From Anaerovoracaceae bacterium (lineage in GTDB: Bacteria > Bacillota > Clostridia > Peptostreptococcales > Anaerovoracaceae), in assembly GCA_050953405.1 (NCBI GenBank), contig JBMNMP010000003.1:183159-247158 (forward strand): a stretch of 64,000 nt of DNA. The letters are read 5' to 3'. The notes beneath the pieces are model-generated. The model was not told the origin of the DNA. It ran no database searches and worked only from the letters and a program-made list of their open reading frames with translations. The position numbers and the translations under genes are program-made. Below are positions 2,604-63,539 of the stretch, piece by piece; position 1 is the first letter of the stretch, and the number at the start of each line of letters is the position of its first letter.

Positions 2604-3101
2604 TTAGAACTTCGCCCTAAGTTCGATTACTCTACCTAAAATTGTAACAGGCAGGCTCGCAATCTCACTTTGTGTGTAAAAGTCCGGTGTGTACTTAATG
2701 TTGGTAGGCGCAAGTGATATCATGCCGCCATTATGCTTTTTCAGCATACGCATAATGGCATCGTCGGAATTGACCATCGCGATCACAATGTCGCCGCTGT
2801 CACAGTCTGGCTGTTTTCTTACGATTACTACATCACCGTCGCAGAAACGTGGCTCCATACAGTCGCCCTGAACCTGCAATGCTATTATTTCACCGCTTTG
2901 CGCCATCTCCGGCGTGATTTCTTCCCAGTCTATGATTTCTTCGACTGCTTCCATCGGCCGCCCGGCGTGAACCATACCGACCACTGGTATGCGGGGGTAC
3001 TTTCGTTTCTTTTTTGGCTCGGGCGAGTCAGAGTTGCATTCATCTATCAAGTCTGTTTTATTGACTTCAAAATAATCGGCTAATTTCTGAATTTTTCCCA
3101 T
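2604..3101 (-). CDS. LexA/CI-like S24 peptidase-domain repressor, N-terminally truncated (HTH mostly missing)
   Basis: 165 aa. It begins with only the last helix of an XRE-type HTH (KLADYFEVNKTDLI). The S24 domain carries GDCMEP (Cys where LexA-family proteins have the Ser nucleophile) and MRMLKK. An in-frame stop lies immediately upstream at 3104-3106. Confidence 0.75.
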   Translation of the reverse strand: MGKIQKLADYFEVNKTDLIDECNSDSPEPKKKRKYPRIPVVGMVHAGRPMEAVEEIIDWEEITPEMAQSGEIIALQVQGDCMEPRFCDGDVVIVRKQPDCDSGDIVIAMVNSDDAIMRMLKKHNGGMISLAPTNIKYTPDFYTQSEIASLPVTILGRVIELRAKF

Positions 3102-3109
3102 TCTAGGAA

Positions 3110-3436
3110 GTGCAATACCCCTTGGGGTTTACGTCGAATAATCTAAAAGAGCATTTCGGGTCGAATGGAAGGCATACCAAAGAATATCCGGGATGGACCG
3201 CCGAAAAATACGAGAATGAGGCATTAAAATTAGTGCAAAGCCGCACAACGGATGATATAATAGGGTATAAAACAATATACGGTGCGGTTGTAAGATACAG
3301 GAAAAGCACAAACGACCTTGTAGTAGGTTACCCTAATGGCGGAATTGCAACGATGTTCAAACCAAAAGGCAACGCCAAAAAAGGGTATAGATATGTGTTA
3401 AGGAAAATGAAGAAAGAAGGGATCATTCATGATTAA
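3110..3436 (+). CDS. Hypothetical protein; looks like an N-terminally truncated C-terminal toxin/nuclease-type domain
   Basis: 108-aa ORF with a GTG start 8 bp from the divergent repressor start. The pattern NLKEHF..GRHTKEY..AEKYENEALKLV...GIATMFKP recalls polymorphic-toxin or phage head-protein C-terminal domains. This assignment is from memory only. Confidence 0.35.
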   Translation: MQYPLGFTSNNLKEHFGSNGRHTKEYPGWTAEKYENEALKLVQSRTTDDIIGYKTIYGAVVRYRKSTNDLVVGYPNGGIATMFKPKGNAKKGYRYVLRKMKKEGIIHD

Positions 3437-3614
3437 ATGCCCCGTGTGTGGAAAATATGAATTTGAGAACATTGATGACTATCGCGTTTGCCCTATTTGT
3501 AATTGGGAGAATGAAGAGTATCAGAGGCGATACCCGGATGAAGACGGGGGCGCCAATCGAATGAGCCTTAATCAGGCACGTGAGGCTTGGAAGAAAGGTG
3601 AAAAAGTTATTTAA
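3429..3614 (+). CDS. CPCC-family cysteine-rich small protein (immunity-like)
   Basis: 61 aa with CPVCGKYEFEN...YRVCPICNWENEEYQ, the CPxC...CPxC-W-E pattern of the Cys-rich CPCC domain. Its start overlaps the preceding ORF by 8 nt. Confidence 0.6.
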   Translation: MIKCPVCGKYEFENIDDYRVCPICNWENEEYQRRYPDEDGGANRMSLNQAREAWKKGEKVI

Positions 3615-3661: not shown

Positions 3662-3880
3662 ATGAAAGAGAACAGAGAAACGATATATGAATCTTCCATA
3701 CAAAAGTTGATACAGCAGGTGAGGGATGTAGGGGGATATCTTCAGGAGCATGCGGACGAGATCGTATACCGTGGGCCATATCTGGAAGATGGCGCGTTGA
3801 AAATCATCGCAAGGTTCAATTACGGGAAGGTTCCGATTCTTGAGATAGGATATAATGTTGTTGTATTGAAACACAAATAA
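3662..3880 (+). CDS. Hypothetical small phage-region protein
   Basis: 72-aa ORF with RBS AGGAGGA 6 nt upstream. No recognisable motif. Confidence 0.4.
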   Translation: MKENRETIYESSIQKLIQQVRDVGGYLQEHADEIVYRGPYLEDGALKIIARFNYGKVPILEIGYNVVVLKHK

Positions 3881-3949: not shown

Positions 3950-4370
3950 ATGGCAGATCGAATCGGACGCCAGACCCCTACGGAGAGTTTTGTTTTACCA
4001 TATCAAAAGACAGACGGCGCCGAGGCAATCGAAAGCTACGAGAAATCCGGGCGCACCGCAATGGACTGGCAGAAACTTCTTGTCTACGACATGCTGGCGA
4101 AAGAGGATGATAACCAGTGGACGCATATGAAATACGGGATCGCCGTCCCAAGGCAGAACGGCAAGAATGAAGCTGTCGCAATTCGCGAGATGTACGGGCT
4201 GCTGCACGGAGAGAAAATTCTACATACCGCGCACCGTACCGATACATCACATACCGCATGGGAACGGCTGCTCGAGATCCTGTCGGATGCCGGGCTTGTA
4301 AAGCCTGACAAGAAGGACAAAGGCCTGTATCGGGCGTTTGGAAAAGAACACCAGACGGTTGACAGCAACA
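3950..4370 (+). pseudogene. Phage terminase large subunit, N-terminal ~135-140 codons only; 5' half of chimeric ORF 3950..4783
   Basis: RBS AAGGAGGGG. The N-terminus MADRIGRQTPTESFVLPYQKTDGAEAIESYEKSGRTAMDWQK...VPRQNGKNEAVAIRE...LHTAHRTDTSHTAWERL matches the conserved N-terminus and Walker-A-like region of Clostridial phage TerL as I recall it. GC-rich: 34 G+C in the 60 nt at 4261-4320. Confidence 0.7.
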
Positions 4371-4783
4371 ATTATTCGACATCAAAAAACATCATAACAT
4401 CTTTGGATGCATATTCGGATCAATATAATCTGATTTGCAAAGTGGATATGTATTATAAGGATAAACAGCGTATTGTCGAACGAAAGAAAAAAATTAAAAG
4501 GATTTACGATGGCTATGTGTTCCAATTATATGCACAGTACTTCTGCCTCACGGAGATGGGATATCCTGTAACTAGTTTGCAGCTTTACAGTATGGATGAT
4601 AACAAGAAGTATGATGTGAAGCTGCCGGAAGATGACCTTCCTATGTATGAAAAATTCACAGGTACTATTCAGGCAATACTGCATTTCAATCTGGAAGAAT
4701 TTGTACAGACTAATGTTGAGAAATGCCGTCACTGTATATATGAACCAGCATGTGACAGAGCGGATATAAAGGAAAAGGAGTAG
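4371..4783 (+). pseudogene. cas4: cas4, 5'-truncated; 3' half of chimeric ORF 3950..4783
   Basis: PD-(D/E)xK core is present: LICKVDMY (motif II Asp), IVERKKK (E-x-K), QLYAQYF (QxxxY), and C-terminal Cys cluster CRHCIYEPAC. The N-terminal Cys and motif I are absent. AT-rich: 17 G+C in the 60 nt at 4381-4440. It sits directly upstream of cas1. Confidence 0.75.
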
Positions 4784-4787
4784 TCAT

Positions 4788-5747
4788 ATGCTCAGTTTGC
4801 CAGAAATTAAGAAAAAGCAAATAGTGTTTGTGTTTGCATATGAAGGTGACAAGCTTTCTTTTTCAAATGACAATATAGTTGTTAAGGATAAGGAAGGGAA
4901 GGTGAAACATCAATCAACGTGTTATAAACTGTTCATGGTTGTTATAGCTGGTGATATTACCATAACAAGTGGTATACTGAAAAGGGCTAAAAATTTCGGA
5001 TTTACTATTTGTTTGATGAACCGAAATCTCAAAGTATATCAGATGATAAACAGCGTTGGTGAGGGCAACACTCTGCTGCGCAAATATCAGTATTCATATG
5101 ACAAGTTAGATCTGGGAAAACGGATCACAGAAAATAAGATATATAATCAGCTAAGCGCATTGAAGAAGATGCGCAAAAAATCATTATTTGATAAGGAGGC
5201 GATTTCATACCTTAATAATTATATTGAAAAAGTTAATAGTGCAAATTCCATAAATGAAATGATGGGTTACGAAGGCGCTGCAGCAAAAATATATTTTGAA
5301 CGGATTTTCGACAATGGCGACTGGAAAGGCCGCAAACCGAGAATTAAATGCGACTATATTAATACAACTTTAGATATTGGATATAATATTCTTTTCAATT
5401 GTATGGAGGCATTGCTTCATGCGTTTGGATTTGATACATATTATGGCGTGTTGCATAGATGTTACTATAGACGAAAATCTCTAGTATGCGATTTTGTAGA
5501 ACCTTTCCGCCCTCTGATAGACCTGGAGGTAAGAAAGGGAATCAATTTGGGGCAGATCAAAAGTGAAGATTTTACGTTGCGAGGACATAGGTACGTGTTG
5601 GATTGGAAAAATTCTCCCAAATATGTAAGCTTGTTTGCCAAAGCAATTTTAGCACACAAAGAAGATATGTTTTTGTATGTACAGACGTACTATAGATCAT
5701 TCATGAAGCAGCTGGGTAGTTCTGAATTTCCGTTTTATAGAATGTAG
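4788..5747 (+). CDS. cas1: CRISPR-associated endonuclease Cas1
   Basis: 319 aa. Motifs GYEGAAAKIYF, TTLDIGYNILFN, and GVLH...SLVCDFVEPFRPLIDL. Flanked by cas4 and cas2. Confidence 0.9.
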   Translation: MLSLPEIKKKQIVFVFAYEGDKLSFSNDNIVVKDKEGKVKHQSTCYKLFMVVIAGDITITSGILKRAKNFGFTICLMNRNLKVYQMINSVGEGNTLLRKYQYSYDKLDLGKRITENKIYNQLSALKKMRKKSLFDKEAISYLNNYIEKVNSANSINEMMGYEGAAAKIYFERIFDNGDWKGRKPRIKCDYINTTLDIGYNILFNCMEALLHAFGFDTYYGVLHRCYYRRKSLVCDFVEPFRPLIDLEVRKGINLGQIKSEDFTLRGHRYVLDWKNSPKYVSLFAKAILAHKEDMFLYVQTYYRSFMKQLGSSEFPFYRM

Positions 5748-5756
5748 GCGATAGAG

Positions 5757-6032
5757 ATGATTGTTGTTAGCTATGATATCTCCGACAACAAACTCAGGAC
5801 AAGATTTTCAAAGTACCTGAAGAAGTTTGGACATCGATTACAGTATTCTGTATTTGAGATAGATGTGAGTGAGCGTATGCTGGACGTCATTGAGGCAGAA
5901 ATAAAAAACAAATATGAAAAAAGATTCGGGCAGGAGGATAGTATAATCATATTTCGCATGTCTAATACCTGTAAAAACACCAGATATGGCTATGCAGCAA
6001 ACGATAACGATGATATGATTATAGTAACATAA
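5757..6032 (+). CDS. cas2: CRISPR-associated endoribonuclease Cas2
   Basis: 91 aa. MIVVSYDISDNKLRTRFSKYLKKFGHRLQYSVFE is the typical Cas2 N-terminus. Confidence 0.9.
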   Translation: MIVVSYDISDNKLRTRFSKYLKKFGHRLQYSVFEIDVSERMLDVIEAEIKNKYEKRFGQEDSIIIFRMSNTCKNTRYGYAANDNDDMIIVT

Positions 6033-6158
6033 TTACAAACCTCAGTCTTTATGAGGTAATACCATATATTAGGTTTAATGAACATGGCAAATTTGTGTAT
6101 GATGAACAAAAATATAGGCTCCATAATAAAAATAATTGTACAACGCTAACACTTAAGC
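6033..6158 (+). promoter_or_regulatory. AT-rich CRISPR leader
   Basis: 126-nt AT-rich stretch between the cas2 stop and the first repeat. Small hairpin ACCTCA/TGAGGT at 6038-6058. Weak promoter candidate: TTAATG (6075-6080), 17 nt, TATGAT (6098-6103). Confidence 0.6.
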
Positions 6159-9100
6159 GTTCATGGAACCTATGAAATTTCTACTGTTGTAGATTTGTGG
6201 CGAACACTCTCAATACTCTTGTTCATGGAACCTATGAAATTTCTACTGTTGTAGATATGCAGATAATGGCGGTGGTTGTAGCGTTCATGGAACCTATGAA
6301 ATTTCTACTGTTGTAGATTTTAGAGCTTCCATTGATTTTTCGATGTTCATGGAACCTATGAAATTTCTACTGTTGTAGATCACACCAAGCCCACGCTTCG
6401 CTATCCGGTTCATGGAACCTATGAAATTTCTACTGTTGTAGATTACGGGGTTTACTAAAAGAGCTATAAATGTTCATGGAACCTATGAAATTTCTACTGT
6501 TGTAGATTTGTCCCCGATTCTTTTAACTGCTTCGTTCATGGAACCTATGAAATTTCTACTGTTGTAGATGACGGCTTTAAGAATCCGGTCATCAATGTTC
6601 ATGGAACCTATGAAATTTCTACTGTTGTAGATCTTTGCCCGCTGCCTTTGCAAGCTTGGTTCATGGAACCTATGAAATTTCTACTGTTGTAGATATCAAC
6701 GGTCTGCTCTTATTACATTCAGTTCATGGAACCTATGAAATTTCTACTGTTGTAGATTACATCATCTGTAGTGGTATCTGGGGGTTCATGGAACCTATGA
6801 AATTTCTACTGTTGTAGATTCACAACACGGTTAGTATTTATAGACGTTCATGGAACCTATGAAATTTCTACTGTTGTAGATATTATTACCAGAGCATACC
6901 AGAGCATAGTTCATGGAACCTATGAAATTTCTACTGTTGTAGATATATTTTCCTTATATGAAGTGTCCACTGGTTCATGGAACCTATGAAATTTCTACTG
7001 TTGTAGATTCCTTTCAGTGCGTCTTTAAGTTTTGTGTTCATGGAACCTATGAAATTTCTACTGTTGTAGATAAGGACAACTCCCCTTGCTCGTTATAATG
7101 TTCATGGAACCTATGAAATTTCTACTGTTGTAGATCCGCCGATTTTTCCTATCCACCCGAACGTTCATGGAACCTATGAAATTTCTACTGTTGTAGATTG
7201 AGCTTGCTGATCTGATCTTTGAGAGGTTCATGGAACCTATGAAATTTCTACTGTTGTAGATTGGATCTCGGCCAGATCGCTCCAGAGGTTCATGGAACCT
7301 ATCAAATTTCTACTGTTGTAGATAAACTCATCTTTTATTACCCTGTACGGTGCGTTCATGGAACCTATGAAATTTCTACTGTTGTAGATCAGTAAAGACC
7401 GATGATGATACATATGGTTCATGGAACCTATGAAATTTCTACTGTTGTAGATAAATTATTGGAATTGATAGATATACAGGTTCATGGAACCTATGAAATT
7501 TCTACTGTTGTAGATCAAAATCTGATATGTCAGTAGTTACCGAGTTCATGGAACCTATGAAATTTCTACTGTTGTAGATTGCAACCTCTTGACCTGCGAG
7601 CCTGTAGTTCATGGAACCTATGAAATTTCTACTGTTGTAGATCTCGGCCGCAGTAAATGAAATGCCGACGTTCATGGAACCTATGAAATTTCTACTGTTG
7701 TAGATATTTGATTTAAGTGTCATGTTATTTCGTTCATGGAACCTATGAAATTTCTACTGTTGTAGATCTGAGATATGTGCACGGTGGATGAGCAAGTTCA
7801 TGGAACCTATGAAATTTCTACTGTTGTAGATTGTAGATTCGGCATCGACACACCTCTTGTTCATGGAACCTATGAAATTTCTACTGTTGTAGATCATGCG
7901 GATGCTGTGAATCCACAAGGTGTTCATGGAACCTATGAAATTTCTACTGTTGTAGATGTCCGCCTGTGGTCGGATCAACATAGTGTTCATGGAACCTATG
8001 AAATTTCTACTGTTGTAGATTTTAGTTTGTTTATCCCTGTAATAGTGTTCATGGAACCTATGAAATTTCTACTGTTGTAGATACATAACTCGCGATGCTT
8101 CTCTGCTTTGTTCATGGAACCTATGAAATTTCTACTGTTGTAGATCCGTATGCCTTTGGCGGGAAAAAAGGTAGTTCATGGAACCTATGAAATTTCTACT
8201 GTTGTAGATCCCATCTGACGCGCGTCACGCTTCAGGTTCATGGAACCTATGAAATTTCTACTGTTGTAGATCCAAAACGCCATTCGCATAATTATCCGGT
8301 TCATGGAACCTATGAAATTTCTACTGTTGTAGATTTCGGTGTATCGGGTACAACATCTTATGTTCATGGAACCTATGAAATTTCTACTGTTGTAGATTTG
8401 TTCCAAGCCCCGGGTTTGCTTTCATGTTCATGGAACCTATGAAATTTCTACTGTTGTAGATTGATCGTTCCCGCCTGACTGACTCCCAGGTTCATGGAAC
8501 CTATGAAATTTCTACTGTTGTAGATTGTACGCCGTGTTCATAACCCCTACCGGTTCATGGAACCTATGAAATTTCTACTGTTGTAGATTTGCTGCATCCT
8601 GCCATGAGTGTTTTTGGTTCATGGAACCTATGAAATTTCTACTGTTGTAGATAGTCGAAAAGGAAACAAAAGGAGCGATGTTCATGGAACCTATGAAATT
8701 TCTACTGTTGTAGATTTTTGCTTCCGAAAATTCCATCAACGTGTTCATGGAACCTATGAAATTTCTACTGTTGTAGATCTTCGCTTTTATCACTGACGCC
8801 TTTGTATGTTCATGGAACCTATGAAATTTCTACTGTTGTAGATTTCTGCTGTTCAAAATAATCCTCCATTGTTCATGGAACCTATGAAATTTCTACTGTT
8901 GTAGATCTCTGGTTGCAGAAGTTCTCAATGAAAGTTCATGGAACCTATGAAATTTCTACTGTTGTAGATTCCATTCTGACATGTTATGCCTCCCAAGTTC
9001 ATGGAACCTATGAAATTTCTACTGTTGTAGATGGGAAGAGATCGCGGCTCGTGGGTTGAGTTCATGGAACCTATGAAATTTCTACTGTTGTAGATTCGTC

Positions 9101-9344
9101 GTCCTCGATCTTGCAGTAGCTGTTCATGGAACCTATGAAATTTCTACTGTTGTAGATCTTCATCATTGAATATGAAGCAGTGTGTTCATGGAACCTATGA
9201 AATTTCTACTGTTGTAGATAAACAGCTGCTGTCAGAGAACTGGTAGTTCATGGAACCTATGAAATTTATACTGTTGTAGATCGGAAGTAACATACCGCTC
9301 TTGCGGAAGTTCATGGAACCTATGAAGTTTCTACTGTTGCAGAT
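6159..9344 (+). CRISPR. Type V-A (Cas12a/Cpf1-type) CRISPR array, 51 repeats and 50 spacers
   Basis: The 36-nt repeat is GTTCATGGAACCTATGAAATTTCTACTGTTGTAGAT. I counted 51 copies by hand, the first at 6159 and the last at 9309. Spacers are 26-30 nt and all different. The repeat 3' end AATTTCTACTGTTGTAGAT (stem TCTAC/GTAGA) is the Cas12a crRNA handle. The two distal repeats are degenerate: 9246 has TTTATACTG, and 9309 has GAAGTTT and GTTGCAGAT. The repeat at 7288 has TATCAAATT. Confidence 0.97.
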
Positions 9345-9557
9345 TTGCTTGAAGGCGTAAAGTGGTTCCGGGTGGTAGATCTTCGTATTGACTATTGCTT
9401 ACTGGATGATAGGAAATATATACAGGACTTTATCGGCGATGAACGCACGAATGTGGTAGGGTCTGTTTATATGTATAAAGAAATGAAGTACGGCTTTAAG
9501 GATGTTCCGGTCCCGCTGGGAGAAGGGGACGTGATCATAGATGCTTTCTGTGAGTAA
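9345..9557 (+). CDS. Hypothetical ORF abutting the last repeat; possibly a remnant of a disrupted host gene
   Basis: 70-aa ORF with a TTG start directly at the array end. Host-like GC content, no RBS, no recognisable motif. Confidence 0.25.
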   Translation: MLEGVKWFRVVDLRIDYCLLDDRKYIQDFIGDERTNVVGSVYMYKEMKYGFKDVPVPLGEGDVIIDAFCE

Positions 9558-21163: not shown

Positions 21164-21184
21164 GATACCTGAAATCAAAAATCG

Positions 21185-21412
21185 TTCAGATGAAACCGCC
21201 GGTGTGCGACCTAGAAGCGCAATGCGATAATAGGGAACCGGGTGAAAGTCCCGGGCAGACCTTGCTGCCGTTACAGCCGGAAAACCTGCCGGGGGTTCAT
21301 CCCGCGGGCAACAGGCTGCAGCGCACGGGGTGAATATTGATAGATGACGGGATGTGCAGAGGCGCATCCCATGCTTCGGCAGAATGCAGCCGGAGCTTTT
21401 ATTATTTTTTGA
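21185..21412 (+). ncRNA. Cobalamin (B12) riboswitch with terminator expression platform
   Basis: Core AATAGGGAACCGGGTGAAAGTCCCGG, and B12-box-like AGCCGGAAAACCTGCC. Terminator stem GCTTCGGC (21373-21380) pairs with GCCGGAGC (21389-21396), followed by TTTTATTATTTTTT. Confidence 0.75.
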
Positions 21413-33527: not shown

Positions 33528-33724
33528 AATTTGCAGTTGACAAACCCGGTACGCATGGGTTATTATTCTCATATCATATGACTGACGGAAACGTGGAATG
33601 AACCACAATGAAGTATGATTATAACAAAGCCGACCGTCTGGGCGAAAAGCCCTGAGGTGCGGCTTTTTCTATTGCGGGACCGCGCGGTGATCAAGGACCG
33701 CGGGAGCATGAAGCGGAGGAACGG

Positions 33725-40763: not shown

Positions 40764-40838
<75 letters not shown>

Positions 40839-40904
40839 AGGCCTCTTGCTGAATCGATTTTTAAATATCAGGGGCGCCGGACGTTGTCCGCGCCCCGTGA
40901 TCAT

Positions 40905-40979
40905 TGGCTAGGGTAGCAGGATTCGAACCTGCGCATGATGGAATCAGAATCCATTGCCTTACCACTTGGCGATACCCCA
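40905..40979 (-). tRNA. tRNA-Gln (CTG)
   Basis: Reverse complement TGGGGTATCGCCAAGTGG... with anticodon loop TTCTGAT, ending TACCCTAGCCA. Confidence 0.85.
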
Positions 40980-41057
40980 ATGTTGGTTACTTTTCTATTA
41001 TATAATACACTCCGTGATTTGTGAACTGGTATTTCACGTTTTGTATTTTCTCTTTAA

Positions 41058-41134
41058 TGGGGTGGGTAGTGGGATTCGAACCCACGCATGGCGGAGCCAC
41101 AACCCGCTGTCTTAACCACTTGACTATACCCACC
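41058..41134 (-). tRNA. tRNA-His (GTG) with encoded G-1
   Basis: Reverse complement G-GTGGGTATAGTCAAGTGG... with anticodon loop TTGTGGC, ending TACCCACCCCA. The extra 5' G pairs with C73. Confidence 0.9.
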
Positions 41135-41138
41135 AAAT

Positions 41139-41215
41139 TGGCGATCCGGATCGGGTTCGAACCGACGACCTCCAGCGTGACAGGCTGGCATTCTAACCAA
41201 CTGAACTACCGGACC
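41139..41215 (-). tRNA. tRNA-Asp (GTC)
   Basis: Reverse complement GGTCCGGTAGTTCAGTTGGTTAGAATGCC... with anticodon loop CTGTCAC, ending CCGGATCGCCA. Confidence 0.9.
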
Positions 41216-41232
41216 GCATAATTAGTCATACA

Positions 41233-41308
41233 TGGTGGGCGCTACAGGGCTCGAACCTGTGACCCCCTGCTTGTAAGGCAGGTGCTCTCCCAGCTGAGCT
41301 AAGCGCCC
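41233..41308 (-). tRNA. tRNA-Val (TAC)
   Basis: Reverse complement GGGCGCTTAGCTCAGCTGGGAGAGC... with anticodon loop CTTACAA, ending AGCGCCCACCA. Confidence 0.9.
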
Positions 41309-41334
41309 ATATACAATGTATTTGATAAAGTATA

Positions 41335-41411
41335 TGGTAGCGGCGAGTGGATTCGAACCACCGACCTTCCGGGTATGAACCGGACGCTCTAGCCAACTAA
41401 GCTACACCGCC
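41335..41411 (-). tRNA. Elongator tRNA-Met (CAT)
   Basis: Reverse complement GGCGGTGTAGCTTAGTTGGCTAGAGCG... with anticodon loop TTCATAC, ending CGCCGCTACCA. It resembles Bacillus elongator tRNA-Met. Confidence 0.8.
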
Positions 41412-46063: not shown

Positions 46064-46627
46064 ATGTACTTGATAGTCGGCCTGGGCAATCCAGGCAGGG
46101 AGTACGCTCAGACCAGACACAACATGGGCTTTATAACCCTGGATCATCTGGCAGCACAGCTGGGCGTCGATATAAACAGAATAAAATTCAAATCTTTGGT
46201 CGGGGAGACGCGTCTTTCCGGCCAAAAAGTTGTGCTCTTAAAACCGCAGACATATATGAACAACAGCGGTGAAGCGGTGCGCGAAGCGGTCAGCTTTTAC
46301 AAGATCGAGCCGGAGAACCTGATAGTGGTTTATGACGATCTTGACATTGAACTGGGGACGCTGCGTATCAGAAAAAAAGGCAGCGCAGGCACGCACAACG
46401 GGATGCGGTCCGTGATCAGACTGCTAGGATTCGATAATTTCCCGCGTGTGAGAGTTGGTATCGGCAGCAACGGTGATACCGACATCATCAACTACGTGAT
46501 CGGCGGTTTCCGCAAGGAAGAGGTGGAGCCCCTGGAACGCGCAGTCGAACAGGCCTGCCGGGCATTGAAGTGCTATGTTGAATACGGAATAGAGAAAGCG
46601 ATGCAGGATTACAATGGCAAATGTTGA
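46064..46627 (+). CDS. pth: Peptidyl-tRNA hydrolase
   Basis: Motifs MYLIVGLGNPG..Y..TRHNMGF and GSAGTHNGMRS. Confidence 0.92.
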   Translation: MYLIVGLGNPGREYAQTRHNMGFITLDHLAAQLGVDINRIKFKSLVGETRLSGQKVVLLKPQTYMNNSGEAVREAVSFYKIEPENLIVVYDDLDIELGTLRIRKKGSAGTHNGMRSVIRLLGFDNFPRVRVGIGSNGDTDIINYVIGGFRKEEVEPLERAVEQACRALKCYVEYGIEKAMQDYNGKC

Positions 46628-49600
46628 CATATGCGGAGTATCCGACAGCCGCAGCGCAGAAGCTGCCGGCAGGATAATCAATGAAAAGGGAGGCCAGTGG
46701 CTCGTGGTTTCCCCGTCTCTGGCGGGGGCTTCGCGCATGGCCTCCGACCTTTCATTTTTTGTAAAGAAAAAAATATACCTGCTGCCGTACGACCAGGAGA
46801 CCTTCATAGGCTACGAAGCCAAGAACAGGGATGCGCTGACCGGCCGTCTGCGCGTGATGAAGGCGCTGCTGGACGATGAGGACTGCGTCATCTGTGCGCC
46901 CGCACAGGCGGCGATATGCAAGCTGCCGCCGGCGCAGACGATGAGATCGCAAATGTTCACGATCAGTGACGATGATGAAATATCGCTCAAAGAGGTGACT
47001 TCAAAACTGGTGGACATGGGGTACGAGCGCGTGCCCCTGGTTTATGCAGCGGGTCAGTTTTCCCTGCGCGGCGATATCCTCGATATTTTCACGCCCTACG
47101 GGGAAGCTCCCTTCCGCATAGAGCTGTTCGATACGGACGTGGAATCGATACGGACGTTCGATCCGGTTTCCCAGAGATCAGTGGAAAAAGTCACCGGACT
47201 GACGGTGGCCCCGGCGACGCTGATCGTGCGCGAGAAAGAATCCTTCTCGCGGGCGAAAGAAGGCATCGGCAAAGCTTACAGGAGACTGCCGGAGCGCCGT
47301 GATGAACTGCTGGACCTGATAGAAAATTTCAGCAGCACGCAGCATCTGGAAAATTATCTCGACTATTTTTATGAACACCCGCAGCACATCTGGGATTATA
47401 TGAAGAACGACGGCCGCATCATCGTCGATGATCCCAACCGCTCCTGGGAGAATCTCAAGGCCAATGGACAGGAGCTGGAAGCGGACTTCGAAGTATACAT
47501 GGAAAAGGGCCTCGTGGTGGCCGCGGATTTTGAGAAACAGCCGGGTGTTGCCGATCTGGAGGAAATGTACCGCGCCGGGGACACCTGGTTTCTGACGCCG
47601 TTTGCGCGGAATATTAAAGGCGTGGAGCAGCTGGACGAGCTGAAAAACGTCACCAGCAGACAGACTCTTTCGTACAACGGAAAACTGGAGATACTGGAAA
47701 AAGATCTGCACCGCTATCTCGACAATGCTTACAAGGTGACCATCGTATGTTCCACCGAGGACCGGATGCGCAATATGAAGGAATATCTTTCACACATCGG
47801 ACTGCGCCAGCAGATATGGGTCAAGGGCGGTAATCTTTCCGGTGGCATGGACCTGCCGGACGAAAAAATCTGCTATATAACGGACGGCGATATCTTCGGC
47901 ACTTACAAGAGAAAGCGCCGCCGCCGCAGGGCCGGCAGCGAGAACACCGAAGCCATCAAGAGCTTTTCTGAGATCAGGAAGGGCGACTTTGTGGTCCATG
48001 AAGCTCACGGTATCGGAAAGTACGAGGGCCTGGAACAGCTGACGGTGGCCGGTGAGGTCAGGGATTATCTCAAGGTGAAGTATGCAGGGAACGATATGCT
48101 CTACGTGCCTGCGGACCAGATGCACTTGATCCAAAAGTACGTGGGCGCCGATTCCACGGCGCCGAAGATCAACAAACTGTCGGGCAGCGAGTGGCGCACC
48201 ACCAAAGCCAAAGCCCGGGCCAGCGTGGCCAGCATGGCCAAGGAGCTGCTGGAGCTGAGTGCCGAGAGGGCGGCGGCGCCGGGATATGCATTTGAGCCGG
48301 ACACGGTATGGCAGAAGGAGTTCGAAGACAGCTTTCCTTACGAGGAGACTCCCGATCAGCTGCGCTGCATCGAGGAAATAAAGCGTGACATGGAAAAGCC
48401 GGAGGTCATGGACAGGCTGCTCTGCGGTGATGTGGGTTACGGCAAGACTGAGGTCGCCGCGCGCGCCATGTTCAAGTGCGCTGCCGAAGGCCGTCAGGTA
48501 GCCATGCTGGTGCCGACTACCGTGCTCGCCAGCCAGCATTATCACACACTCACAGAGCGTTTCGCGAAATTCCCGTTCACCATCGATGTGGTCAGCCGCT
48601 TCCGCACGCCTGCGGAACAGAAAAAGACCATAGAGGGCCTGAAGAAGGGAACGGTGGATATCGTGATCGGCACGCACCGCCTGCTGTCCTCCGACGTGGC
48701 TTTCAAAGATCTAGGGCTGCTGGTGGTCGATGAGGAACAGAGATTCGGCGTCGCTCACAAGGAAAAGATCAAAAAGATGCGCAAGAACGTGGACGTGCTC
48801 ACTTTGTCGGCGACACCGATCCCGCGCACCCTGCACCTTTCACTGCTGGGTATCCGCGACATGAGCCTGCTGGAGGAGCCGCCGGAGGAGCGCTATCCGG
48901 TACAGACATATGTGCTCGAGGAGGATGATCATGTGATCCGCGAAGCCATAGAGCGCGAGCTCGACCGCGGCGGACAGGTATACGTGATCCACAACAGGGT
49001 CAACGGCATACACCGGATCGCGGACAAGATAGACAAGCTGGTCCCCGGCAGGCGCATCGTGGTCTGCCATGGGCGCATGAGTGAGACGGCTCTGGAGGAT
49101 TCCATGATGGCTTTTGTCAACGGTGAAGCCGATATCCTGGTGGCCACGACTATAATAGAAAACGGGATCGACATACCGAACGTGAACACTGTGATCGTCA
49201 TTGATGCCGACAAATTCGGCCTCTCACAGCTGTATCAGCTGCGTGGCCGGGTGGGCAGATCTACCCGCCTGGCTTATGCCTATCTGATGCACAGGCCCGG
49301 CAAGGTGCTTAGCGAGGTGGCCGAAAAGAGGCTCAAAGCCATCAAGGACTTTACCGAGTTCGGTGCCGGCTTTAAGATTGCGATGCGGGATCTGGAGATA
49401 CGCGGTGCCGGAAATCTGCTGGGCCGTGAGCAGCACGGCCACATGGTGAACGTGGGCTATGAACTCTACAGCAAGATGGTCGATGATGCCGTGAGAGCCC
49501 TGCGCGGGGAGACCGTCCGCAGCGAGGATAAGGAAGCTACCATAGATATGAAGCTGCCGGCTTATATACCCGACTGGTACATACATGATGAAGAGGTCAA

Positions 49601-49898
49601 GCTGTCGATGTACAAGAAAATCGCGGCTGTGAGCAGCGAAGAAGACCAGAAAGCCATGATGGAGGAGCTCGACGACCGCTTTGGCAGTGTGCCTGCGGAG
49701 ACCAGAAATCTGATGCTGGTTTCCCGCATCCGGACCCTGGCGGAGGAGCTGGACGTGCGCAAAGTCATCATCCAGAAAAAGAGGGCTGTCTTGAATTATG
49801 ACAAGAAACTGAAGATGCGTCCCCAGGCGATCTTCCTCGAGAGCGGGGGCAATCCGCTGGATGAACTGCTGGATGTGATGACTGTGATGATAAGGTGA
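46614..49898 (+). CDS. mfd: Transcription-repair coupling factor Mfd
   Basis: 1094 aa. CarD-like region (GDFVVHEAHGIGKY), SF2 helicase motifs (GDVGYGKTEVA, VDEEQRFG, LSATPIPRT), and TRG motif (LYQLRGRVGRS). Confidence 0.92.
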   Translation: MANVDICGVSDSRSAEAAGRIINEKGGQWLVVSPSLAGASRMASDLSFFVKKKIYLLPYDQETFIGYEAKNRDALTGRLRVMKALLDDEDCVICAPAQAAICKLPPAQTMRSQMFTISDDDEISLKEVTSKLVDMGYERVPLVYAAGQFSLRGDILDIFTPYGEAPFRIELFDTDVESIRTFDPVSQRSVEKVTGLTVAPATLIVREKESFSRAKEGIGKAYRRLPERRDELLDLIENFSSTQHLENYLDYFYEHPQHIWDYMKNDGRIIVDDPNRSWENLKANGQELEADFEVYMEKGLVVAADFEKQPGVADLEEMYRAGDTWFLTPFARNIKGVEQLDELKNVTSRQTLSYNGKLEILEKDLHRYLDNAYKVTIVCSTEDRMRNMKEYLSHIGLRQQIWVKGGNLSGGMDLPDEKICYITDGDIFGTYKRKRRRRRAGSENTEAIKSFSEIRKGDFVVHEAHGIGKYEGLEQLTVAGEVRDYLKVKYAGNDMLYVPADQMHLIQKYVGADSTAPKINKLSGSEWRTTKAKARASVASMAKELLELSAERAAAPGYAFEPDTVWQKEFEDSFPYEETPDQLRCIEEIKRDMEKPEVMDRLLCGDVGYGKTEVAARAMFKCAAEGRQVAMLVPTTVLASQHYHTLTERFAKFPFTIDVVSRFRTPAEQKKTIEGLKKGTVDIVIGTHRLLSSDVAFKDLGLLVVDEEQRFGVAHKEKIKKMRKNVDVLTLSATPIPRTLHLSLLGIRDMSLLEEPPEERYPVQTYVLEEDDHVIREAIERELDRGGQVYVIHNRVNGIHRIADKIDKLVPGRRIVVCHGRMSETALEDSMMAFVNGEADILVATTIIENGIDIPNVNTVIVIDADKFGLSQLYQLRGRVGRSTRLAYAYLMHRPGKVLSEVAEKRLKAIKDFTEFGAGFKIAMRDLEIRGAGNLLGREQHGHMVNVGYELYSKMVDDAVRALRGETVRSEDKEATIDMKLPAYIPDWYIHDEEVKLSMYKKIAAVSSEEDQKAMMEELDDRFGSVPAETRNLMLVSRIRTLAEELDVRKVIIQKKRAVLNYDKKLKMRPQAIFLESGGNPLDELLDVMTVMIR

Positions 49899-55251: not shown

Positions 55252-55347
55252 GTAGTAGCGGACGCAATACCGCATCGCAAGCTCGTTGCTTTTCGTCCAC
55301 AGGCTACATCCCATCCTGAGGCACGTAACGCACGGTATTTACTCTAC
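55252..55347 (-). ncRNA. THF (tetrahydrofolate) riboswitch
   Basis: The minus strand reads GTAGAGTAAATACCGTGCGTTACGTGCC...GGATGGGATGTAGCC...GGACGAAAAGC...GCGGTATTGCGTCCGCTACTAC. This matches the recalled THF-I consensus blocks (AGAGTAG..CGCGTTA..GGGATG..ACGAAGC..GCATCCGCT). It lies in the 5' leader of folT. Confidence 0.75.
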
Positions 55348-55409
55348 AAGAAAGAGTATAGCACAAGCTGTTCTTGAAGGCAATATTTCGATTTGATATA
55401 CTGTTATCT

Positions 55410-58530: not shown

Positions 58531-60056
<1,526 letters not shown>

Positions 60057-60083
60057 CTCAAGTTTCTGCACTATGTGTTTTAT

Positions 60084-60160
<77 letters not shown>

Positions 60161-60449
60161 CATGTACCTTGAAAACTGAATATCCGAAAGTGTAAATTCA
60201 AATTTTACATAGTAAAAATTAATTTTACGAAACGAATCGAGGAATGCGCGAGAGCGCATCCAAAGTATTAGCTAAATGAAGCAAAACTAAGCGAACGCAG
60301 AGTTTTTCCCATTTGGCGGGTATAAAAAACGATTCATCGAGAAACCAGACCATTTTCACAAAAGAGAAAACAATAGTGAAGATAAGAAAATCCATCGTAC
60401 GCTAGCGATGGTGGCCAGTTATATCGCGGAAGCGGTAGACAAGCAATAA

Positions 60450-63350
<2,901 letters not shown>

Positions 63351-63417
63351 TGGTTTCTAAGGAAGACAGAAAGACACATGAGTAGGACATTCAGTTTTGA
63401 GGGTACATGACCCCATA

Positions 63418-63533
<116 letters not shown>

Positions 63534-63539
63534 TTAACA

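Follow-up and report, generated by a model that had tools for sequence, protein, structure and literature searches.

What remains of a CRISPR-Cas locus once its effector gene has gone, and does the remainder still serve the cell? The question is raised by a locus in a 64,000-nucleotide (nt) stretch of DNA from an Anaerovoracaceae bacterium (GenBank assembly GCA_050953405.1, contig JBMNMP010000003.1, positions 183,159 to 247,158 of the forward strand). In this stretch, hereafter the window, whose own numbering is used throughout, part of cas4, complete cas1 and cas2 genes, a leader and a large array with type V-A repeats follow each other on one strand, with no gene for the Cas12a nuclease beside them. 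An earlier note, made from the sequence of this DNA, had left three options: a dead relic, an array served in trans by a cas12a elsewhere, or a module devoted to adaptation only. Our analysis favours the dead relic, with the qualification that it is a very young one: with a probability of roughly 0.78, the locus is a freshly orphaned and functionally inert type V-A relic that has not yet decayed. As such it is a case of ordinary CRISPR decay, and represents neither a new system nor a new mechanism.

The terL-cas4 junction and its age

The open reading frame (ORF) at 3950-4783 is an in-frame chimera made of residues 1-134 of a phage terminase large subunit (TerL) and residues 46-189 of a Cas4 protein. 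The terL fragment (3950-4351, + strand, codons 1-134 of about 472) matches the terminase large subunit family phrog_9 with an E value of 6.8e-19, still has a Shine-Dalgarno sequence of its own, AAGGAGG, upstream of its ATG, and shows 87% protein identity to the full 472-residue TerL encoded on the IMG/VR contig L078, the homology ending at ...GLYRAFGKEH. The cas4 fragment (4348-4783, + strand, residues 46-189 of 189) is recognized by the type V Cas4 model TIGR04328 at model positions 41-177 of 178 (165 bits), the match running through chimera residues 133-270 only. What is left is therefore the 3΄ three-quarters of a type V cas4 gene, the intact form of which is found in locus L005, where the full Cas4 protein matches TIGR04328 from position 4 to 177 with 222.6 bits. 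The window and L005 are identical base for base from position 4348 onwards and unrelated before it. Since the TerL and the Cas4 parents have the His codon at 4349-4351 in common, the join lies within the ACAC at 4348-4351, with a microhomology of at most 4 nt. The position of the junction, which the earlier note had placed at about 4350-4400, is thereby refined. The residues of Cas4 lost at the junction (1-45) include, as judged by alignment with relatives, the near-invariant block MEDPIPATCLNDFIFCPASIY with the N-terminal CP cysteine motif, whose cysteine we take to be a ligand of the iron-sulfur cluster. In the NCBI annotation, the chimera carries the label 'type V CRISPR-associated protein Cas4' (MGI6722432.1).

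Phage DNA therefore stands in the place of cas12a, with the TerL fragment abutting the Cas4 fragment, as the earlier note had proposed, and of the operon only the 3΄ part of cas4, cas1, cas2, the leader and the array are left. The gene for the type V subfamily Cas1 (4788-5747, + strand) is full length, its product being matched by TIGR04329 with 374.7 bits (cutoff 300) over profile positions 2-316 of 317, and by PF01867; in the Anaerovoracaceae metagenome-assembled genome (MAG), NCBI also names it a type V Cas1. It is followed by a full-length cas2 gene (5757-6032, + strand; PF09827 positions 2-73 of 74, and TIGR01573).

How old is the junction? Locus L005 (Logan run SRR11702762) codes for a Cas1 that is 100% identical to that of the window, for an identical Cas2 and for the intact Cas4 of 189 residues, and carries the same chromosomal genes downstream. 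Between the two alleles there is not a single difference over 4348-6158, and only 2 of 8966 nt differ downstream. Upstream of cas4, L005 retains the last 118 codons of cas12a, which include the DADANGAYNIARKGLW RuvC-III region; fragments homologous to this remnant gave Pfam matches to NUC and RuvC_1. The order cas12a-cas4-cas1-cas2-array, which the earlier note had taken as canonical, is present in all five of the relatives compared (L011-L015, with Cas1 proteins 49-72% identical); a comparison of their gene order, made to reconstruct what lay upstream of cas12a, revealed nothing in common outside the cas genes. Alignment to relatives has in this way recovered the canonical order and, in L005, an intact cas4, whereas an intact cas12a of this lineage was not obtained. 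Because there are no substitutions across 4348-6158 with respect to the intact-cas4 allele, the window allele derives, by a very recent deletion, from a canonical V-A locus with the order cas12a-cas4-cas1-cas2-array.

The junction is not confined to one assembly. The exact Cas1 is encoded on 11 contigs, and all but one of these (10/11) are chimeric or were grouped by the search tool with chimeric ones; in no independent assembly was an intact cas12a found upstream. The junction was read directly in six loci, four from Joint Genome Institute (JGI) samples (L001, L002, L004 and L006, from 3300060680, 3300060803, 3300061563 and 3300062814) and two from Logan runs (L003 and L007, from SRR31066036 and SRR31066337), and the chimeric protein is also encoded in the NCBI Anaerovoracaceae MAG, on a contig of 519,782 bp. 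As no fewer than six assemblies of other samples share it, the junction is not a misassembly.

Only one further contig extends upstream of cas4, namely L131 (Logan run SRR29081727, 1452 bp), which over 869 nt has 100% identity to L005 and in which cas12a is broken. It carries, in this order, part of a gene for an amidohydrolase-type dipeptidase, a piece coding for Cas12a residues ~734-833, which stops at the RuvC-I motif GIDRGERH, an out-of-frame piece for residues ~1099-1220, and an intact cas4. If real, this arrangement would be a second, independent inactivation of cas12a in the same lineage; as a single short contig, we treat it as a lead only. The start of L005 coincides exactly with the internal junction of L131, as expected of a branch in an assembly graph, and for this reason L005 is no proof of an intact cas12a.

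The array and the missing effector

In the array (6159-9344, + strand), delimited with Tandem Repeats Finder and by direct pattern search, the 36-nt repeat GTTCATGGAACCTATGAAATTTCTACTGTTGTAGAT occurs 51 times. The copies are identical in 48 of 51 cases, the others, at 7288, 9246 and 9309, having one, one and two mismatches, respectively. The 50 spacers, none of which is repeated, are 26-30 nt long (mode 27) and have a G+C content (GC) of 0.447. At its 3΄ end the repeat bears the Cas12a handle AATTTCTACTGTTGTAGAT and folds into the hairpin UCUAC-UGUU-GUAGA, with the 5-bp stem of the AAUUUCUACU-loop-GUAGAU form, and its last 19 nt are those of the short FnCpf1 direct repeat as printed in PMC5716609. 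Pattern search, fold and FnCpf1 identity thus bear out the description of a V-A array given in the earlier note. The same handle is present in loci that do have cas12a, since the repeats of four of the five relatives (L011-L013 and L015) also end in AATTTCTACTGTTGTAGAT, and that of L014 has the same stem with the loop TCGG. In V-A systems Cas12a is both the RNase that processes the pre-CRISPR RNA (crRNA) and the interference nuclease, and from the present array its processing would give mature crRNAs of ~42-44 nt that start at AAUUUCUACUGUUGUAGAU.

Between cas2 and the first repeat lies an AT-rich sequence of 126 nt (6033-6158, + strand), which we regard as the leader because the degenerate repeats are at the opposite, distal end of the array; a simple scan of its + strand gave no sigma-70 promoter match, which is uninformative. 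By its repeat handle and by its Cas1 and Cas4 subfamilies, the locus can be assigned to type V-A, and the Cas12a effector that defines this type is absent from it. Compared with the canonical system of Francisella novicida, it is alike in the 36-nt repeat, the 19 nt shared with FnCpf1, the UCUAC/GUAGA hairpin, the type V Cas1 and Cas4 subfamilies, the one-strand cas4-cas1-cas2-leader-array order and the spacers of 26-30 nt, and differs in that cas12a is lacking and that the 5΄ part of cas4 has been replaced by a fragment of a phage terL. All the assemblies have a gene call for a 70-residue ORF (9345-9557) that begins directly after the last repeat and had no match to a family in PHROGs or among the precomputed Pfam hits of the collection.

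Searches for Cas12a by tblastn, with two full-length proteins of relatives and the C-terminal fragment of the lineage as queries, gave only noise, both in the 64-kb window (best E 0.22) and in the ~6 kb further upstream that L008 covers (E 0.23). The sole ORF of more than 1000 codons in the window (46614-49898) codes for Mfd, as had been stated before. No cognate effector is therefore found in the 54 kb downstream of the array, nor in the ~12 kb inspected upstream of it (the part inside the window and ~6 kb of L008). In the survey of Bernheim et al. (2020, PMC7145637), an array counts as distant or orphan if the 20 kb around it, or the whole genome, contain no cognate cluster of cas interference genes; 12% of CRISPRs are orphan in this sense and 23% distant. 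The complete cas12a of the lineage was recovered neither with the C-terminal fragment, which retrieved short fragments only (P0001 at 99%, the next best at 59%), nor by a metagenome scan (relatives at no more than 61% identity), nor with a full-length Cas12a as query (nothing above 69% at the C-terminus), and the GTDB species representatives hold no Cas1 closer than 72%. In other genomes, fragmented or duplicated pieces of cas12a were observed on long contigs, some of which may be sequencing frameshifts: in L132 a full cas12a is followed by an NYN gene and by an additional C-terminal piece of Cas12a, amid insertion sequence elements; in L133 a whole V-A locus is in pieces (possibly long-read frameshifts); and in L134 cas12a is split near the C-terminus, with neither cas1 nor cas2 nearby.

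What do the spacers record? Outside the array, the window, prophage remnant included, contains no match to any of the spacers, and no credible match was obtained in L078 or in 48 integrase-related prophage loci (1.39 Mb of loci in all). The INPHARED phages contained no target, the matches there being chance, repeat-level ones, and exact seeds of spacers 1-4 found none in IMG/VR. The spacer matching proposed in the earlier note, which was to reveal a TTTV protospacer adjacent motif, yielded no credible protospacer in these collections. A match of spacer 24 on L085 (19/21) was rejected as chance, being flanked by ATGT and not TTTV and mismatched at both ends. The array repeat itself is not found on IMG/VR viral contigs.

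Spacer content is also informative about time. L001, L002 and L004 carry all 50 spacers in the order of the window, and in L006, two single-nucleotide polymorphisms (SNPs) away from the window, the first 25 spacers from the leader end match before the contig stops; the unchanged spacers in these four JGI assemblies give no sign of acquisition after the deletion. The earlier note had read the 50 different spacers as a long history of active acquisition; past acquisition stands, and the activity predates the very recent deletion, as the absence of substitutions over 4348-6158 indicates.

The prophage remnant and its chromosomal setting

Upstream of the chimera, the window carries the remnant of a prophage, probably integrated at the tRNA-Met gene (1147-1222, + strand; ARAGORN and Rfam) that closes an Asn-Leu-Met tRNA cluster. 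The gene for a tyrosine integrase begins 82 nt downstream of it (1304-2419, - strand; PF00589, PF14659 and PF22022; phrog_1, integrase, E 2.6e-52), and its relatives in IMG/VR prophages do not exceed 58% identity. Next come a fragment of an S24, CI/LexA-like repressor without its helix-turn-helix (HTH) domain (2604-3101, - strand; PF00717, LexA profile positions 78-197 only; phrog_4, transcriptional repressor) and three small phage-associated ORFs on the + strand, placed by phrog_6332 among other evidence: 3110-3436, corresponding only to the C-terminal ~90 residues of a portal-fusion family of ~790 residues (phrog_15528, positions 701-789 of 794); 3429-3614, a Cys-rich CPCC protein (PF14206); and 3662-3880, of 72 residues and without a family. 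The HTH-less repressor and the C-terminal piece of the portal fusion (2604-3436) make the remnant a patchwork of truncated phage genes, which points to earlier deletions inside the prophage. A second copy of the tRNA-Met 3΄ end (at least 12 nt), as expected of attR, was not found elsewhere in the window.

The GC is 0.36 in the cas genes, 0.46 in the prophage remnant and 0.52 in the window, and the CRISPR locus is a low-GC island within a higher-GC chromosome. The window also contains a six-tRNA cluster (40764-41411), a complete rRNA operon (16S, tRNA-Ile, 23S, 5S; 58531-63534) and tetrahydrofolate, ZTP and cobalamin riboswitches (55254-55348, 33568-33650 and 21182-21307).

Proposed history of the locus and its meaning

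We propose that the ancestor carried cas12a-cas4-cas1-cas2-leader-array as a low-GC island, and that a prophage inserted upstream, at the tRNA-Met, and was already decaying before the deletion. A single deletion by illegitimate recombination then joined codon 134 of terL to codon 46 of cas4. With it went the whole of cas12a and the first 45 codons of cas4, and on the phage side the 3΄ two-thirds of terL, what else there was of the prophage and any DNA in between; the missing parts of genes add up to a loss of at least ~5 kb. Without Cas12a, neither mature crRNAs nor immunity would be expected from the array, and adaptation would be impaired at best, because Cas4 is broken and the stretch upstream of cas12a that would have carried the promoter of the operon has gone. 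What is left would be a young, inert record of past infections, which only a compatible cas12a coming from elsewhere could revive. The perfect state of cas1, cas2, leader and repeats is explained by the youth of the deletion. The size of the array also fits a very recent loss, with 51 repeats as compared to means of 8 in orphan arrays and 24 in arrays inside loci (PMC7145637). Defective loci are common, and in the Bacillus cereus group most CRISPR-Cas systems are defective by gene content (PMC7242445). The locus resembles those orphan and defective ones (PMC7145637, PMC7242445) in its incomplete cas set and in having no cognate effector nearby; it differs from them in that its array is unusually large and undegraded, and in that the deletion can be mapped to the nucleotide through near-identical strains with an intact cas4.

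Could the array still be at work? A cas12a located elsewhere, in the genome, on a plasmid or in a phage, might process its transcript and use the 50 spacers, and the undamaged leader and repeats would allow it: the 19-nt handle is conserved and equals the short FnCpf1 repeat, it is common to relatives whose Cas1 is only 50-72% identical, so that a foreign Cas12a could plausibly read the array, and arrays far from compatible cas clusters are frequent (~23% of CRISPRs, PMC7145637). Even so, we consider such use in trans unlikely, since the tract between ~6 kb upstream of the array and 54 kb downstream of it gave no Cas12a signal, the 120 best Cas12a homologues listed include none on a contig of 519,782 bp (a weak negative), no IMG/VR contig has the array repeat, no other array with this repeat was found, and perfect repeats are equally expected from the youth of the deletion. 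Much less probable still is that Cas1-Cas2, with or without the chimera, go on adding spacers with no effector. Both genes are of full length, with family models matched from end to end, and as the terL start that now lies upstream of them has a strong Shine-Dalgarno sequence, they might be expressed by read-through; against this, Cas4 is without its conserved N-terminal block, four assemblies, L006 with its two SNPs among them, agree in spacer content and order, and we know of no selective benefit of acquisition without interference. With Cas4 damaged, the promoter region lost and the spacers unchanged, the framing of the locus as a noteworthy effector-less or adaptation-only system is not supported.

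The way in which the effector was lost also admits other explanations. That the junction is an assembly chimera, or that cas4-cas1-cas2-array is cargo of an integrated phage, would agree with the integrase and phage genes directly upstream on the contig and with the shift in GC at the junction. Misassembly and phage-borne cargo are, however, effectively refuted: the same junction was obtained from several samples and with different pipelines; in L005 the block has the same chromosomal downstream flank, with cas12a sequence instead of phage genes upstream, a cas12a-cas4 join that L131 repeats; and both fused genes are truncated and no IMG/VR contig has the repeat. A further possibility, though a rather improbable one, is that the deletion was selected: a spacer would have matched the prophage, Cas12a would have cut the chromosome, and the survivors of this autoimmunity would be those that had lost both the target and cas12a. 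Self-targeting spacers are reported to come mainly from prophages (PMC7708048), and it has been documented that such a conflict can end with CRISPR-Cas being deleted (PMC3784566), patterns that our locus fits in that interference genes were deleted, with one endpoint inside the prophage and the other inside the cas operon; the possible second, different rearrangement that destroys cas12a in the lineage (L131) would point the same way. In contrast to those cases, no self-targeting spacer was found here, none matching the remnant, the rest of the window, L078 or the 48 prophage loci, and the 19/21 match of spacer 24 lacks a TTTV flank; moreover, with the prophage already reduced to a mosaic of gene fragments, a neutral deletion suffices. 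A link with autoimmunity is thus only possible. Somewhat more doubtful again is that cas12a was destroyed at least twice independently in near-identical strains of this lineage, by the terL΄::΄cas4 fusion and by the truncation and RuvC-I-to-Nuc deletion of L131, while cas1, cas2 and the 50-spacer array were kept. If this were true, the double loss would suggest selection to disarm the nuclease, for instance because of autoimmunity against the neighbouring prophage, and the stored memory would stay available for any Cas12a able to read the conserved handle that came in and armed it again.

Several points weigh against a freshly orphaned, inert relic. The perfect cas1, cas2, leader and repeats are, as far as the sequence goes, compatible also with function in trans or with residual adaptation, and with ~70 kb of the genome inspected a second cas12a elsewhere is possible. 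The ancestral state is deduced from the 118-codon remnant of L005, the fragmented L131 and distant relatives, in place of a complete cas12a of the lineage, and the length of the microhomology likewise from a parental terL represented by its closest relative, at 81% DNA identity. In addition, the assemblies that share the junction, although independent as assemblies, have consecutive JGI and SRA identifiers and probably come from one or two projects, so that the identical arrays may reflect one clone sampled repeatedly and not a long stasis.

What does an orphaned V-A locus of this kind mean? As a freshly orphaned relic, it offers a clean natural case of the passage from a working class 2 CRISPR-Cas system to an orphan array, at nucleotide resolution, with near-clonal alleles from before and after the event in public metagenomes. 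It also calls for caution in automated annotation, because the chimera is called a type V Cas4 and a locus with no effector would be counted as type V-A, so that neither the fusion nor the lack of an effector would be noticed. And if a recurrent loss specific to the effector proved to be true, this lineage would be useful for studying in the field what Cas12a immunity costs in the neighbourhood of prophages.

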